Below, in pieces: positions 2,701 through 11,569 of a stretch of DNA of 32,000 nucleotides. The notes below the pieces were generated by a model. That model did no database searches. It was not told the origin of the DNA and saw nothing but the letters and a program-made list of their open reading frames with translations. The first letter of the stretch is position 1; the number at the start of each line of letters is the position of its first letter. The DNA is from Candidatus Electronema halotolerans. Its GTDB lineage: Bacteria; Desulfobacterota; Desulfobulbia; Desulfobulbales; Desulfobulbaceae. Location: positions 3,150,001 through 3,182,000 of the forward strand of contig OW818675.1 in assembly GCA_942493095.1 (NCBI GenBank), written 5' to 3'. The position numbers and the translations under genes are program-made.

Positions 2701-5700
2701 TCAATCCTTGATGCAGCGAACAGATGCTCCCCCCGCACGAAGAATTATATCATTTAAGTATGCTTCACTGGTGGTGAAATTCAAGGCGTAAGAATAGGAG
2801 ATATTATAACCAAGACAATCATAACCGATGCTGGTCCAGTAAAAACCATAGACACCTTGACCGGTTATTTCTCCATCTGTGTGTGAACGACTGCCTGATG
2901 CAACGATCTTTAAAGGAGACGCGAACGCGCCAGCAGCATCTTTTGAACTCCAAGAATTTATCTCAACTTGCCATTCATCTTTAGTCGGCAGTCTGAATCC
3001 GTCAGGACAAGGATTATTTACGCCGTTTACGCCTTGCCACAGGTTATTATTTTGCGGACTTCTCCAATCATAAGGACTGACATCTGATGTTATAAATTTA
3101 TCATGTCCCGGATGATCGGTAGAAATGAGCGTTGAAGTTGTTCCGCTTGTTCGTTTTTCATGCCCGTCAGAAAGTCTGCCCCACTGATAAAGATCGCCAA
3201 ACGCCTCTGTATCCGTCATACTCGTTGCCACTCGCGAAGCACCGAGATTGCGGTCCATCCAGATTCTTCCTGTCGGAGAAGTTACCGTTGGGATTGTAGG
3301 TTTCTGTATTGTTATGGTGAGCTTTTCTTCTGTCCAAGGAACGCTTTCAGAGGAACCAATAGTTGATGTTACGACAGCAAAATACGTTTTTCCCGCTATA
3401 CCTTGGAAACTCGCATTTGTTGCTGTTGTTTTTATTGTAAAACCATTTGGATGTGAATCGAAATCTTCAGGGTCTATTCCTCTTTTATCGGAAATATAGA
3501 CTGTATATCCATCTGCAAAAGGTGATGCATCCCAGCTTAGATAAACAACCGCTGAATCGTTCGCGGTAAGAGCTAAATTCTTTGGGGGCTGGGGCGTTAC
3601 TATTTCTTTTGAAACGACACTTACAAAAAATTGATCTTTTTCAGATTCTCCGCTTGGGGTGGTGACTTTTACTCTTCCTCGGATAAGTACATGATTTGTT
3701 CCTAGTGGAATTTCTGGTGCAACAAAAGAAGCTGTTGTCCCATTATTTGAAATTGAAATTCCCTCAGGAGAAGTAATTCTCCAGTCGTATTCAGTTCCTG
3801 ATGGTGGTGTGTAGGGTACTGTATTAAAGCTAAGATCACCATCTTCTAATTCCAATAAAACCTGTTCCCCAGGTTCTGCTGTCTGGAATTTTTTAACCAG
3901 ATTTAGCGACAGTTCTTTCTGTAAAATTTCCTGATCAAGAGTCAATCCATATTCATAGGTATTACTCAGCGAACTTGTATGGAGTATTCCGAGTGGATCG
4001 TTTTTATATTTTTTATATCGAACCCATGTGGATATCTCCAAAAAATCGTTAGTTACATCTGGGTTATCCATTTTTTCTGCAAGGCAGCCGTTATACGTGT
4101 CTCCGTAGTTATATAGGTTGAATTTACTCCCGCCAATTCCTTTAGGGATGCCTGAATAAATTGTGTTATTAAAAACGCCGTTCTCTCCCAGAGAACGAAA
4201 TTGTATTTGACCTGTATCTATCATCAGTCCATCGGTCGATAAATTTTCAAATTCTACGCAGACAACGATGAAGTTATTGATGGTCGAAACCTTTTTTATA
4301 CGGATATTCATCATATCTGTAGATGAATTCTGTTGAGAAGGTAAAAGAATAATCGCTTTGTCTTTCAAATCCTTCACCTTACTATCTACTAACCCAGTAG
4401 CATCAGCAACTATTTTATTAAACAACGCCTCGTCAATATTTCTATTGTTCATGAAATGTTTTTTCAGTTCCCACCAATTTGATGGATACCCATATTCAGC
4501 CTGCTGTTTTACAAACGCAAGTTTTCCAGCCGCATTATAATACGCATTAAGATAATCCAAAGCGGCACTATATGTGTCGATCTCGTCTTGCTTGCTATAG
4601 AGCATCCATGCTGCTATTCCATTTAAGTAAACTTGGTAAACCTCTTGCGAGAATTGACTGACACAGCCCAAAGCACTTAATTTAGAAATATCGCGTTCCC
4701 AACGGCAAGCATCATACACCCTGCCTCCTTTCATGAGTCCATCAACAGCACCGGCAGTCCACAGGTGGCCTTCTCCTATGAGTTCTTCTTTAATTTCATC
4801 CTCGGTCATCGAAAGCAATTCGCTCTTTACTTTATCTTTACCACCTTCTAACAATCCTGCTTTTACACTGTCAGGACTTGCATTAACTGCTGAAATAGCA
4901 GCAAAAGCATCTGCTACAGCCTTTGCATCTTTCTCTGCTTCCTTTTTTCTTTCTAAAACATCGAGAGAGTCCCATATCATGGCACTATGTTGAAGATTCA
5001 TTAACGGTCCTACGTGAAAATGCCAGAAATAATGTTTTAATCTATACCAAGCACTCATGGGTGCATCACCTTCAAGTATAGCTGTATTGCATGGAAAATC
5101 TGTCAAACAGCCAGCCAAGGGAGAATTGCCATGATAATAGTCATAAATACCAAGATTTTTTAGCAGTTCAGCCTTGGGGGCATTGATAGAATGCTGGATA
5201 CTGCCTGTCTTATCCGCATTAAACTCCTTGCCGACTAACGTTTTAAATTGGTTTTTAAAATCTTGGTCGTTTGGATCAACTTCATAGATGGAATAGCTGA
5301 GGTTTTTAAGAGCTTCATCATCATCTGTTTTGATCTGTATTCCGTTATCAGGCAGGCCGTCAGAATCTAAGCTTTGCATGATCATGGCTACTTGTTCATA
5401 GCTGCTCATATCATTAACAAAAGCGTATTTATCTGCTCGTACTACCCCTATTGGTTGTCCGCCAATAAAAAATTTTATTGTATCTCCTTTCTTGTAGCGA
5501 TATTCGCAGTTTTCTGTTGTTCTTCCGCTGATACCAGAGCTGGTCTCATATTGCATATTCGATACACAACTATCGATAAATTTACCTGTCTTGACTTTTG
5601 ATCTTATGATAGGAACTATTTTTAATAGTAAGCTTGATGCAGCAAATCCAACCCTGAATGAACAGGTTATAAGCAACAATAAGATAAGTACCCAGAATTT

Positions 5701-5718
5701 TTTATTCATGTTCTTCAT
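2701..5718 (-). CDS. large secreted/surface mosaic protein with Ig/PKD-like and FN3-like modules and a C-terminal FISUMP domain (Fibrobacter succinogenes major paralogous domain, TIGR02145-type)
   Basis: N-terminal signal peptide MKNMNKKFWVLILLLLITCSFRVGFA. FN3-like segment PPKNLALTANDSAVVYLSWDASPFADGYTVYIS. C-terminal motifs are GRIWMDRNLGA...FGDLYQWGR...NPCPDGFRLPTKDEW...GFYWTS. GC content is much lower than the flanks, and no SD is visible before the ATG. Confidence 0.85.
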   Translation of the reverse strand: MKNMNKKFWVLILLLLITCSFRVGFAASSLLLKIVPIIRSKVKTGKFIDSCVSNMQYETSSGISGRTTENCEYRYKKGDTIKFFIGGQPIGVVRADKYAFVNDMSSYEQVAMIMQSLDSDGLPDNGIQIKTDDDEALKNLSYSIYEVDPNDQDFKNQFKTLVGKEFNADKTGSIQHSINAPKAELLKNLGIYDYYHGNSPLAGCLTDFPCNTAILEGDAPMSAWYRLKHYFWHFHVGPLMNLQHSAMIWDSLDVLERKKEAEKDAKAVADAFAAISAVNASPDSVKAGLLEGGKDKVKSELLSMTEDEIKEELIGEGHLWTAGAVDGLMKGGRVYDACRWERDISKLSALGCVSQFSQEVYQVYLNGIAAWMLYSKQDEIDTYSAALDYLNAYYNAAGKLAFVKQQAEYGYPSNWWELKKHFMNNRNIDEALFNKIVADATGLVDSKVKDLKDKAIILLPSQQNSSTDMMNIRIKKVSTINNFIVVCVEFENLSTDGLMIDTGQIQFRSLGENGVFNNTIYSGIPKGIGGSKFNLYNYGDTYNGCLAEKMDNPDVTNDFLEISTWVRYKKYKNDPLGILHTSSLSNTYEYGLTLDQEILQKELSLNLVKKFQTAEPGEQVLLELEDGDLSFNTVPYTPPSGTEYDWRITSPEGISISNNGTTASFVAPEIPLGTNHVLIRGRVKVTTPSGESEKDQFFVSVVSKEIVTPQPPKNLALTANDSAVVYLSWDASPFADGYTVYISDKRGIDPEDFDSHPNGFTIKTTATNASFQGIAGKTYFAVVTSTIGSSESVPWTEEKLTITIQKPTIPTVTSPTGRIWMDRNLGASRVATSMTDTEAFGDLYQWGRLSDGHEKRTSGTTSTLISTDHPGHDKFITSDVSPYDWRSPQNNNLWQGVNGVNNPCPDGFRLPTKDEWQVEINSWSSKDAAGAFASPLKIVASGSRSHTDGEITGQGVYGFYWTSIGYDCLGYNISYSYALNFTTSEAYLNDIILRAGGASVRCIKD

Positions 5719-9521: not shown

Positions 9522-10076
9522 TCAGGCGGGCTTCGGCAAGGTGATCAGGAAACTTGCCCGCTGATGGAAATCAGGTTGGCTGCCGCAGTGGGCAAGCGCA
9601 TGGAAGCTCTGCTGGCCGTTGCGGTCGTGCAGGACTGCGCTCACGGCCAGTTCCGCAGGCTGTTCCGGGCGGATCAGTTCGGCCAAGGGAAAGTCCAGCG
9701 CAAGACGGCAGCAGTCCGCCTGCTGCTGCACGGTGAAGGGCAAGGCGGACAGAGCAGGTTCTTGCCGCATTCCGGCCCGATAGTCGGCAAACGCATAGAC
9801 ATTCCAATCCCCGGACGGCGACAGATTGACTTCCCAATACCGGGGCAGTCCTTGCGGCGCGATGAACAATTCAAAGCAGGTGCTCTGCCAGAGGCCGTCC
9901 CTGCGCCTCGGAGTAGTGCTTGGCGCAGGCAGGAGCAGTTCCGCCACCTTGCCGCGCAGCTCATAGCAGAGATGCAGGCCGGTGCGGCTGCGGACGATGT
10001 GACCGCTGATCTGGAAACGGGCGGCGGCGTTGCCCCAAGGCTGGAGAATAAATTCTGCAATACTCGCAAGCTGCAT
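9522..10076 (-). CDS. DOMON-like / CBM9-like domain protein (184 aa)
   Basis: Intact ORF with host-like GC. The pattern W.STCFELFI.P....YWE.NLSP.G.WN.Y.F..YR matches my memory of DOMON-like domain proteins. No signal peptide is evident. Confidence 0.5.
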   Translation of the reverse strand: MQLASIAEFILQPWGNAAARFQISGHIVRSRTGLHLCYELRGKVAELLLPAPSTTPRRRDGLWQSTCFELFIAPQGLPRYWEVNLSPSGDWNVYAFADYRAGMRQEPALSALPFTVQQQADCCRLALDFPLAELIRPEQPAELAVSAVLHDRNGQQSFHALAHCGSQPDFHQRASFLITLPKPA

Positions 10077-10526
10077 GACAAAAGCTGGGCAGGTTCAAGG
10101 GCAAAGTGATGTTCAAGGGGCAATATGCCGTGTTCCTGCGTGTTCGTCAAGCCATTGCCCTGACTTCGCAAGGGATGGAGTCAGCAGCATCTTGTCTTTT
10201 CTCCAGCCTTGGGCTATAGTCCGCTGTTCCCGCAGCGCATCTTGTTCACAGGAGGGCCGCCATGCCCGGTCCATTCACACCGTAGGAGCAGAAGCATGAA
10301 CCTTGCTTGGTTTAAAGATATTGCCCCGCATCTGAGCAGTCCACTGGTGCTGGTGGGCTTTACCTATATCAGAAACGCGGTGACTTGGACCAAGCGGAAA
10401 TTTGGTGGAAGCAAAGTCTGAGTCTGTTTCTGCCAATGTGCCATCCTTGTGCCAAGAAGATGCAACAATTGCTAAATGAATTAGCCCGGCACCGCGCCAG
10501 CCAGCAGGCACCCACTGCGGCCAATT

Positions 10527-10634
10527 CCCGATAGCAGTATCGGAACAAACTCGACAGTGCTTTCGGGCTGGCCCGATAGTGGTGTCGAGCTGGCCCGAAA
10601 GCAGTGTCGGGGAGAACCCGATACCGGTGTCGGG
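10527..10634. repeat. array of five 22-23-bp-spaced mini-palindromes (CCGAYA-N4-TRTCGG type)
   Basis: Units start at 10527, 10550, 10572, 10594 and 10617. Examples are CCCGATAGCAGTATCGG, CCCGATAGTGGTGTCGA, CCCGAAAGCAGTGTCGG and CCCGATACCGGTGTCGG. Positions 10527-10590 align 54/64 with 11301-11364. Confidence 0.85.
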
Positions 10635-10710
10635 GAACAACCATAGGTCTTGCAGTGAAGGGGCGCAGATCACTCTTGACAAACTGTCTCTTTCATGCGA
10701 CAGTCAGAGG

Positions 10711-11019
10711 ATGAAGTATGAGATAGAGACAAGCAATGTCTTTGACAAATGGCTGGCTGGCATCAAAGACCTCACCTTCAGAGCACGCATCATCAGCCGC
10801 TTTGACCGGATTCAGCTTGGCAGCTTTGGCGATCACAAAAGTCTGGGCGAGGGGCTGTTTGAGCTGCGTTTCTTCTTCGGCCCCGGCTTCCGCGCCTATT
10901 ACACCATCAAGGAATGCAAGGTTGTCTTCCTGCTTTGCGGGGGTGACAAGTCCAGCCAAAGCAAAGACATTGAACGAGCCAAGTCCATCATGGCCAGCTT
11001 GGAGCAGGAGTATGAATAA
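10711..11019 (+). CDS. higB: addiction-module killer protein (RelE/HigB superfamily, TIGR02683-like), 102 aa
   Basis: Motifs FDKWLAGIKD...RARIISRFDRIQLGSFGDHKSLGEGLFELRFFFGPGFRAYY...VFLLCGGDKSSQSKDIERAK. Gene order is toxin first. The start is trimmed to MKYEIET. There is an 8-nt overlap with the antidote gene. Confidence 0.85.
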   Translation: MKYEIETSNVFDKWLAGIKDLTFRARIISRFDRIQLGSFGDHKSLGEGLFELRFFFGPGFRAYYTIKECKVVFLLCGGDKSSQSKDIERAKSIMASLEQEYE

Positions 11020-11293
11020 GATCAGTACGAGAAAATGGGACGCGGTTGAATACCTTGACAGCCCGGAGATGATCCGTGAGTATCTCAGGGTTTCCTTTGA
11101 GGAAGGCGACACTGAGCAGCTCCTGATGGCCATCGGCCAAGTGGCCAAGGCGCAGGGCATCAGCGAGATTGCCCGGAAAGCCAATCTCAGCCGCCAGAAT
11201 CTCTACAAAGCCTTGGCGCAGGGCAGCTCGCCCAAGTTCGAGACCATCAGAAAGGTGGTGGAGGCTCTGGGCTGCAAACTGAGCATCGCCTGA
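11012..11293 (+). CDS. higA: addiction-module antidote protein, HigA family (HTH, TIGR02684-like), 93 aa
   Basis: Motifs WDAVEYLDSPEMIREYL...EGD...AIGQVAKAQGISEIARKANLSRQNLYKALAQGSSPKFETIRKVVEALGCKL. The start is trimmed to MNKISTRK at 11012. Confidence 0.85.
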   Translation: MNKISTRKWDAVEYLDSPEMIREYLRVSFEEGDTEQLLMAIGQVAKAQGISEIARKANLSRQNLYKALAQGSSPKFETIRKVVEALGCKLSIA

Positions 11294-11299
11294 GCCAAT

Positions 11300-11388
11300 C
11301 CCCGACAGCAGTATCAGAATAAACTCGACAGTGCTTTCGGGCTGGCTCAATAACGCTGTCGGGGAAGAACCGACTCAGCCCTGCGGGG
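11300..11388. repeat. second array of 3-4 of the same mini-palindrome units, in direct orientation
   Basis: Units start at 11300, 11324 and 11346, with a degenerate one at 11370. The 26-nt core AAACTCGACAGTGCTTTCGGGCTGGC (11321-11346) is identical to 10547-10572. Confidence 0.85.
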
Positions 11389-11569
11389 CTGGCTTTCTCA
11401 ATATGCCGCATCGTTCTTGCAGGATTCAGCACCTTCCTGTTTCCGCCTGCTCCGCACCAGCCGCGCTGCTCCCTCATATTGCCAAATCCCTCCAGACCGA
11501 GTATTGTTTCCTCCCATTGCAGACAGCCGAATCAGGCGGCTCCTTCCGAACCGACAGCTATGGACAGCA

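Follow-up and report, generated by a model that had tools for sequence, protein, structure and literature searches.

Our analysis concerns a toxin–antitoxin (TA) module, higBA, that is bracketed by two arrays of short palindromes, array A upstream of higB and array B downstream of higA, in a 32-kb stretch of the genome of Candidatus Electronema halotolerans (contig OW818675.1, positions 3,150,001 to 3,182,000 of the forward strand). This whole stretch is referred to as the window, and positions are counted from its first nucleotide; contigs fetched from relatives carry labels such as L128, and W denotes the window copy, with W_A and W_B for the two arrays. Both arrays are copies of a conserved, apparently low-copy and strongly self-complementary repeat that varies in unit number, occurs in at least three unrelated contexts and has an edge that coincides with a deletion of the type found in Electronema sp. 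JC. Comparison with relatives indicates that a block consisting of a TPR gene, the array and higBA was relocated in the window to a site upstream of pyrG, that the TPR gene collapsed, and that a shortened second copy of the repeat came to stand at the higA stop codon. On balance, we lean towards reading the repeat as a low-copy, recombination-prone hairpin element similar to repetitive extragenic palindromes (REPs) and bacterial interspersed mosaic elements (BIMEs), with array B as a secondary copy and the whole arrangement as a footprint of genome shuffling, not of new gene control. The features of the locus are as follows.

10296–10534, + strand: collapsed pseudogene of a TPR protein (tblastn of the L128 TPR protein against the window; translations of open reading frames (ORFs)).
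10296–10370, + strand: codons 1–25 of the TPR pseudogene (tblastn).
10364–10531, + strand, other frame: C-terminal tail of the TPR protein, residues ~410–468 of the Electronema sp. TJ protein (tblastn).
10532–10534, + strand: TPR stop codon TAG, inside unit 1 of array A.
10493–10526, + strand: leader of the repeat element, CGCGCCAGCC...GCGGCCAATTC (blastn of L152, alignment, nhmmer profile matches).
10527–10636, + strand: array A, five units of 22–23 nt (pattern matches, repeat search, folding).
10642–10655, + strand: tail motif CATAGGTCTTGCAG, right end of the duplicated segment (direct-repeat family D9).
10676–10681, + strand: −35-like TTGACA (comparison of W, L128 and L134/L135).
10683–10688 and 10699–10704, + strand: inverted repeat ACTGTC / GACAGT, putative HigA operator (comparison of W, L128 and L134/L135).
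10711–11019, + strand: higB toxin gene, 102 aa, Gp49/RelE-ParE superfamily (Pfam PF05973).
11012–11293, + strand: higA antitoxin gene, 93 aa, HI1420-type helix-turn-helix (HTH) (Pfam PF21716 and HTH_3).
11294–11371, + strand: array B, three units, beginning with GCCAAT (repeat search, pattern matches, alignments).
11376–11399, + strand: GC hairpin CAGCCC-TGCG-GGGCTG (11376–11391) followed by GCTTTCTC (read from the sequence; present in predicted folds).
11409–11422, + strand: tail motif CATCGTTCTTGCAG, counterpart of 10642–10655 (direct-repeat family D9).
11476–11569, + strand: conserved pyrG promoter/leader (comparison of L138, L139 and L140 with the window).

The repeat is non-random and lies far beyond chance expectation. 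Matches to CCGAYANNNNTRTCGG with at most two mismatches are located at 10528, 10551, 10573, 10595 and 10618 upstream of higB and at 11302, 11325 and 11347 downstream of higA. These array cores make up eight of the ten matches in the window, where 2.0 ± 1.4 are expected by chance and none of 100 shuffles reached ten. The 26-mer AAACTCGACAGTGCTTTCGGGCTGGC occurs exactly at 10547 and 11321, with zero occurrences expected. The original prediction of five units upstream of higB and of an identical 26-mer common to both arrays therefore stands, and its hand alignment of the arrays (54/64) is slightly bettered by the computed direct repeat of 68 nt with 87% identity (10520–10587 versus 11294–11361). 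The last unit of array A (10621–10642) is 86% identical to 11350–11371 in array B. Because the direct-repeat alignments pair these segments, the units of array B correspond to units 1, 2 and 5 of array A, and two units of array A are without counterpart. After higA, three to four units had been proposed; three were recovered, but the supposed fourth at 11370 gave way to the separate GC hairpin at 11376–11391, which is terminator-like, is not a unit of the family and is absent from copy A. The terminator scan did not flag this hairpin (11376–11399). Outside the arrays, the tail motifs CATAGGTCTTGCAG (10642–10655) and CATCGTTCTTGCAG (11409–11422) are homologous as well, and the duplicated segment spans about 130 nt.

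Within the arrays, heptamers of the form CCCGAYA and TRTCGGG follow each other in alternating orientation, about 11 nt apart. In the middle of array A (units 2–4), palindrome centres recur every 11 nt with 4-nt spacers because oppositely oriented heptamers alternate, and each heptamer is shared by two overlapping palindromes; at the ends of the array, the spacers between units measure 6–7 nt. The predicted spacing of 22–23 nt is correct for the units, but in the middle of array A it has an underlying period of 11 nt. The palindrome cores comprise 16–18 nt of the 22–23-nt repeat units, and a full element consists of a leader of about 35 nt followed by three to six units. Unit statistics were obtained from 33 distinct units of ten copies: pairing prevails at stem positions 1–5 and 7 and mismatches at position 6, and 71% of the stem positions are paired in units of the 7+4+7 type. 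Two pure unit types exist, CGATA..TATCG and CGCAAG..CTTGCG, and these differ by changes on both sides, which argues that dyad symmetry is maintained. In several units of L128, L129 and L130, TATCGGG is preceded by GTAG; the equivalent window positions read GCAG, GTGC, GTGG, GCAG and CCGG.

The structure predicted for array A as RNA is a single 110-nt hairpin that has unit 3 at its centre, with −74.8 kcal/mol (z = −10.2) for the + strand and −61.7 kcal/mol for the − strand; folded as DNA, the + strand reaches −36.3 kcal/mol (z = −7.2). The predicted fold of array B is weaker (z about −3), and the + strand fold is the more stable one in nine of 11 element copies. The earlier suggestion that the arrays are transcribed hairpins would be compatible with this strong predicted folding; the wobble counts give no strand bias in its favour. 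A search of Rfam 15 at a permissive threshold returned chance-level matches only (at most 21 bits, compared to gathering scores of at least 50 bits).

The closest named relatives of HigB and PyrG are found in Candidatus Electronema spp., and six short metagenome contigs carry the window locus at 99–100% identity. In Electronema sp. TJ and three other assemblies (L128–L131), the genes follow a canonical order of APH-like kinase, TPR, array, higBA, der, cinA and recA, and the encoded HigBA proteins are 91% identical to those of the window. The TPR stop codon there lies within unit 1 of an array of four or five units, after which the same promoter and higBA follow; nothing array-like was found behind higA at these four loci. 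Window positions 10449–11293 are collinear with L128 9763–10583 (83.7% nucleotide identity over 845 nt), and the window block sits upstream of pyrG, not at the TPR–der position. Array A is the native 3' flank of a decayed TPR gene, in a block that is homologous as a whole to a conserved locus of the genus. The ancestral place of the element, as far as the alignments tell, is the 3' end of the TPR gene, where the leader provides the last codons and unit 1 the stop codon. The leader (10493–10526), which doubles as the last ~11 TPR codons, is present also in the copy at L152, which is without a TPR gene and shows 82% identity to window 10493–10634 (blastn). The intact TPR homologue contains TPR Pfam domains. 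Among Electronema genomes, this gene ranges from 360 to 578 aa and is composed of near-identical DNA repeats (L096:1898–3634; L128:8442–9851; L129:8769–9851; L130:8565–9806). Its repeat structure probably explains the collapse to a pseudogene in the window.

We also compared the region upstream of pyrG with that of three relatives (L138, L139 and L140), a comparison the original prediction had proposed. All three have unrelated neighbours and no arrays in this position, but gene order upstream of pyrG differs per genome, so there is no true orthologous empty site for the insertion and the comparison concerns the absence of arrays in relatives only. Similarity to the window starts near 11476–11483 in these relatives; everything left of it is therefore specific to the window genome. 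About 95 nt of pyrG promoter/leader (11476–11569) are kept across the Electronema genomes, and the gene upstream differs in every genome. The spot upstream of pyrG appears from these comparisons as a recurrent rearrangement break point.

One alternative holds that the arrays form an operator- or iteron-like platform, with the TA module inserted into it. Its phased palindromes would bind a dimeric protein (HigA, HigBA or a host factor) that spreads by polymerisation on one side of the helix and controls higBA or adjacent genes. The geometry fits: half-sites within the central part of array A follow each other at ~11 nt, approximately one helical turn, and whole units every 22–23 nt. The dyad symmetry is kept by two-sided changes without G–T/A–C strand bias, as expected for recognition of double-stranded DNA, and several Electronema species have the array immediately in front of the higBA promoter. 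However, array and TA module are separable both ways. Electronema sp. JC (L096) and the metagenome contigs L141 and L157 retain the TPR gene and the array, and higBA is deleted; the left break of this deletion lies at the end of the array (L096:3700–3760, L141, L157), the last ~22 nt of higA remain (CTGCAAGCTGGGCATCGTCTGG), and the arrays keep perfect palindromes. In E. aureum GS (L042), an array of six units with a weak trace of the leader lies between a phosphomannomutase-like and an rRNA-methyltransferase-like gene (functions assigned by visual inspection of the translations) with no TA module nearby. L152 likewise carries leader and five units without TA module, between a BglII-type endonuclease gene and an unknown gene. 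Conversely, an 82%-identical higBA without array (L134–L137) is tightly fitted between genes of the IF-2B family and of peptidase M23. The element thus occurs in three distinct contexts in all, following the TPR gene, whose stop codon falls within unit 1, in L096 and L128–L131 and intergenically in L042 and in L152.

This separability argues that the arrays are not the TA operator, and we rate the operator platform as improbable. Further points speak against it: the units differ considerably in sequence, mostly with a mismatch at position 6; the neighbouring genes include no par, rep or regulator gene; and copy B lies downstream of the operon. Identity of the arrays with HigA operators was likewise rejected on the absence of promoter overlap and on the existence of arrays without TA module (L042, L152, L096) and of TA modules without arrays (L134–L137). 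An iteron- or centromere-like array was rejected because of its chromosomal housekeeping context without rep or par gene and because of the missing match in plasmid and phage collections. Multiple operator sites are familiar from other TA systems: hipBA is preceded by four palindromic operators for HipB, and an 'alternating palindrome' is present at mazEF. The window resembles these systems in that a type II TA operon with an HTH antitoxin is preceded by several palindromes or by alternative ones that overlap; it differs in that the array is separable from the TA module, is located upstream of the −35 motif and not over the promoter, and is also found downstream of the operon.

The TA genes themselves are ordinary. 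The first gene encodes a toxin with PF05973 (26.5 bits at a cut-off of 23.9), and the second, overlapping it by 8 nt, an HTH antitoxin with PF21716 (E = 6.7e-33) and HTH_3. HigB is 91% identical to an Electronema sp. TJ protein named RelE/ParE family toxin at NCBI, and HigA is 91% identical to its TJ homologue. More than 460 homologues were obtained at E ≤ 1e-10; those named by their source are mostly 'addiction module killer protein' or RelE/ParE family toxin. With its toxin-first order, 8-nt overlap, domain pair (PF05973 and PF21716/HTH_3) and promoter palindrome, the module corresponds to type II higBA of the Gp49/HI1420 kind, and the difference is confined to its flanks. Between array A and higB, TTGACA and an inverted repeat are conserved in the array-bearing loci and present in diverged form in the array-less locus. 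The arrays do not overlap the higBA promoter, as they lie 40–150 nt upstream of the −35 motif and, in addition, downstream of higA. Since the array-less, 82%-identical higBA keeps TTGACA and a diverged inverted repeat, the promoter palindrome ACTGTC/GACAGT, and not the arrays, is the likely HigA operator. TA autoregulation would then probably use this separate, promoter-overlapping palindrome, and the earlier statement that autoregulation does not account for the downstream array is borne out. The likeness of the half-site GACAGT to unit 2 (CGACAGT) was judged compatible with chance (~0.2 by a rough count). At L134 (425–470 and 1050–1060) and L135, the TTGACA of the cassette contains the stop codon of the IF-2B-family gene, and the peptidase M23 gene starts 4 nt after the higA stop; such a tight insertion suggests a mobile unit as small as ~620 nt, from promoter to stop.

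How array B came about can be narrowed down from its sequence. Copy B starts at GCCAAT right after the higA stop codon, and in copy A the position of GCCAAT is taken by the final four TPR codons; weak homology may reach ~10 nt further into higA, back to 11282–11284. A comparison of A with B over the first 53 nt gives 92% identity and reveals common bases that other copies do not have; neither exceeds 87% identity to any other copy of the element. As A and B are each other's closest relatives, copy B arose within the window lineage from copy A, or has been homogenised with it by gene conversion. We are thus somewhat inclined to think that duplication or recombination of a recombination-prone hairpin repeat left the downstream array as a by-product, and that this array has no part in TA autoregulation.

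The same observations may be accommodated without any property of the element, by a tandem duplication of the TPR–array–higBA block with subsequent deletions, the arrays being the functionless repetitive 3' flank of a repetitive TPR gene. The near-identical DNA repeats of the TPR gene and its range from 360 to 578 aa between genomes, its collapse in the window, the close relationship of A and B among all copies and the common gain and loss of units are all in line with such neutral wreckage. On the other hand, at least three events with neat end points are needed, as the start of B falls precisely behind the higA stop and at a point four codons ahead of the TPR stop. Solitary copies exist at unrelated loci, across species and with their palindromes kept, which argues for mobility or selection. 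We therefore consider a purely neutral origin unlikely.

Direct repeats of ~130 nt around a TA module of 640 nt make the module excisable by simple recombination. One rival reading sees leader and array as the target of a site- or structure-specific recombinase, with direct repeats that resemble attL/attR, the 26-nt identity as the crossover core and higBA as an excisable cassette. The repeats bracket a 638-nt segment (10656–11293), made up of a 20-nt spacer and a 618-nt cassette from promoter to stop, the perfect 26-nt core has diverged flanks, and copies of the element adjoin accessory genes, namely the TA module and the BglII-type endonuclease gene. A comparable situation was found at L165, where an unrelated, mini-palindrome-rich repeat of 179 nt brackets three TA modules, including one with an 80%-identical HigB. 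However, an identical run of 26 nt is unremarkable in a 53-nt stretch of 92% identity, and the Pfam-scanned parts of the 32-kb window gave no gene for an integrase, a transposase or a Y1 transposase. By eye, attC-like R''/R' motifs (AAC...GTT) are missing from the element ends, and the canonical locus has an array on one side only. Other homologous cassettes occur without such flanks (L134, L176) or with a duplicated piece of the promoter only (L172). Cassette capture of this kind is, in our view, decidedly doubtful.

Chromosomal integrons are known to contain TA cassettes (PMC13108822, PMC4889954). The window shares with these the bracketing of a TA module by direct copies of a structured, hairpin-forming repeat, and differs from them by the absence of R''/R' AAC...GTT cores at the element ends (by eye), by the absence of a detectable integrase gene among the window ORFs scanned, by having a single cassette with its own promoter, and by the one-sided flank of the canonical locus. 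An attC site was rejected since the element starts with GCCAATC or GCCAATT and ends with GGGGAAGAACC, and no AAC...GTT pair (RYYYAAC / GTTRRRY) was seen by eye on either strand. Among the window ORFs scanned against Pfam, we found no recombinase or transposase family and no gene for a REP-associated tyrosine (RAYT, Y1) transposase. With respect to miniature inverted-repeat transposable elements, no obvious terminal inverted repeats or target site duplications were present at the ends of W_B, L042 and L152, for which there are no empty sites for comparison.

Several observations on brackets and neighbours of the element were made alongside. The solitary copy at L152 (1812–2417) adjoins a restriction endonuclease gene of the BglII type (PF09195, E = 1e-47), which places the element in at least one other accessory or defence context. 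The repeat at L165, a metagenome contig, occurs at 1684–1862, 3317–3495 and 4053–4231 (and 2660–2696) and brackets each of three TA modules, DUF6883/DUF4926, higBA and DUF4160/DUF2442, after which an IS110 transposase gene follows. It holds about six GGGTACCC mini-palindromes spaced ~24–27 nt apart, so that its architecture parallels that of the window with an unrelated sequence. At L172 (2885–3021 and 4255–4340), the region upstream of higB and the first codons are repeated 1.37 kb downstream, around a higBA homologue of 76% identity and a ParE toxin gene; this bracket is a duplicated promoter and 5' end without hairpin array. Among the other HigB homologue loci compared, a comparable bracket, formed by a different repeat, was present only in L165, and L176 and L178 had none.

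The original prediction had also considered a genome-wide, REP-like element whose flanking copies mark where the cassette begins and ends. An extragenic repeat with copies elsewhere and at the block boundaries was indeed found, with solitary copies in L042 and L152, but not its genome-wide distribution: an nhmmer profile of leader and array detected no copy in 162 kb of Electronema-related DNA beyond the loci fetched for the element. Zero extra matches in ~150 kb exclude a REP-like density of one per 5–10 kb; a copy number between a few and a few tens per genome would still fit. So far, the repeat has been seen only in Candidatus Electronema, which are freshwater cable bacteria, and it appears to be a low-copy family rather than a REP family of high copy number. 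Blastn against plasmid and phage collections gave no match to the element. A scan of genome contigs with a degenerate two-unit pattern had L042 and L096 among the matches listed (at least 120), nearly all of which were unrelated and many from Flavobacteriaceae, and is unusable for copy number; a scan of metagenome contigs with a U2-anchored pattern returned 24 matches, three of them real (L141, L152, L157).

REPs are known to form clusters in alternating orientation, with dimers that fold into one large stem-loop and may overlap ORFs, and their families range from thousands of units down to fewer than 20–100 (PMC3733652; PMC2817692). The element agrees with REPs and BIMEs in consisting of short, imperfect, stem-loop-forming palindromes in extragenic position at gene 3' ends, sometimes running into the end of the ORF. 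It is likewise clustered in alternating orientation with regular spacing, is foldable singly or as one large stem-loop, and varies in unit number. REP palindromes carry a conserved GTAG or CGTC tag at one end, to which the GTAG or G[CT][AG]G beside the stem in several units (L128, L130, window) may correspond. REPs are usually dispersed over the genome in more than 100 copies, sometimes in 20–100. The element differs from them as follows. The copy number seems very low; the cores of 16–18 nt (7-nt arms, 4-nt spacer) are slightly below the quoted 20–40 bp, with the 22–23-nt repeat units inside that range; the palindromes overlap, each heptamer taking part in two; and a conserved leader of ~35 nt travels with the array.

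A REP/BIME-like hairpin element could act at two levels. As DNA, the alternating palindromes would favour slippage, formation of cruciforms or hairpins, and ectopic recombination. Such proneness to recombination would explain why unit number varies, why extra copies exist and why other lineages have lost higBA by a deletion that starts at the edge of the array. At the RNA level, the TPR transcript would carry a very stable hairpin, formed by the array, at its 3' end, and the higBA transcript one formed by copy B, followed there by the terminator-like hairpin. For REPs and BIMEs, roles in mRNA stabilisation and transcription termination have been hypothesised, and by analogy the RNA hairpins of the element could act in the same way.

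Several observations weigh against this preferred interpretation. Chimeric units such as CCGCAAG...TATCGG exist in which pairing is broken, and single hairpins are thus not strictly maintained. Mismatches within units are balanced (19 G–T versus 16 A–C), without a strand-specific signal of an RNA hairpin. The copy number seems too low for a classical REP. Finally, the event that produced copy B could have followed several routes: transposition-like copying after arrival of the block, tandem duplication followed by deletions, or landing of the block beside a solitary copy already in place. A more far-reaching version treats leader and array as a non-autonomous mobile or recombination element of cable bacteria that copies itself via hairpins, cruciforms or a recombinase and captures, moves or deletes cassettes such as higBA. 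It would be integron-like without attC or IntI and have an analogue in another lineage in the L165 repeat; we think this very doubtful.

Were the hairpin-element interpretation correct, a small and structurally unusual repeat family would be defined in Candidatus Electronema, whose genomes have only recently been closed, and a TA module would have been relocated together with its neighbouring TPR gene and then been bracketed by a hairpin repeat. It would also call for caution against reading flanking palindrome arrays as TA operators. The value would be mostly descriptive, and greater if the element promotes gain or loss of cassettes. A search of the literature on cable bacteria together with toxin–antitoxin systems gave nothing relevant.

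Some further observations concern sequences outside the element family and other parts of the window. Tandem arrays of mini-palindromic units of 21–23 nt are present in metagenome-assembled genomes (MAGs) from unrelated phyla, a Prevotellaceae MAG (L045:6000–6140), a deltaproteobacterial MAG (L117:6470–6620) and an Acidobacteriota MAG (L037:3915–4005). The L045 unit, CCGATAACGCTATCGATGGTGT, is repeated six to seven times, and one unit of Electronema L152 has the same sequence as its core CGATAACGCTATCG, possibly by chance. The ORF at 9522–10076 (184 aa), previously called DOMON, has no match in Pfam, and an exact look-up of its sequence found no record. A metagenome contig of the same species (L003:1556–1768) leaves the window after 11531 and enters the 5' end of a paralogue of this ORF, and the cause is either rearrangement in a strain or a chimeric assembly. 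Contig L127, which comes from the sample of L003, starts at ~11375, inside the flank of copy B. Window positions 2701–5718 form an island of low GC content (0.39–0.42, compared to 0.55–0.60 around it) with an ORF of 1005 aa, the sole Pfam match of which is a sub-threshold Fib_succ_major; this island is probably foreign DNA.

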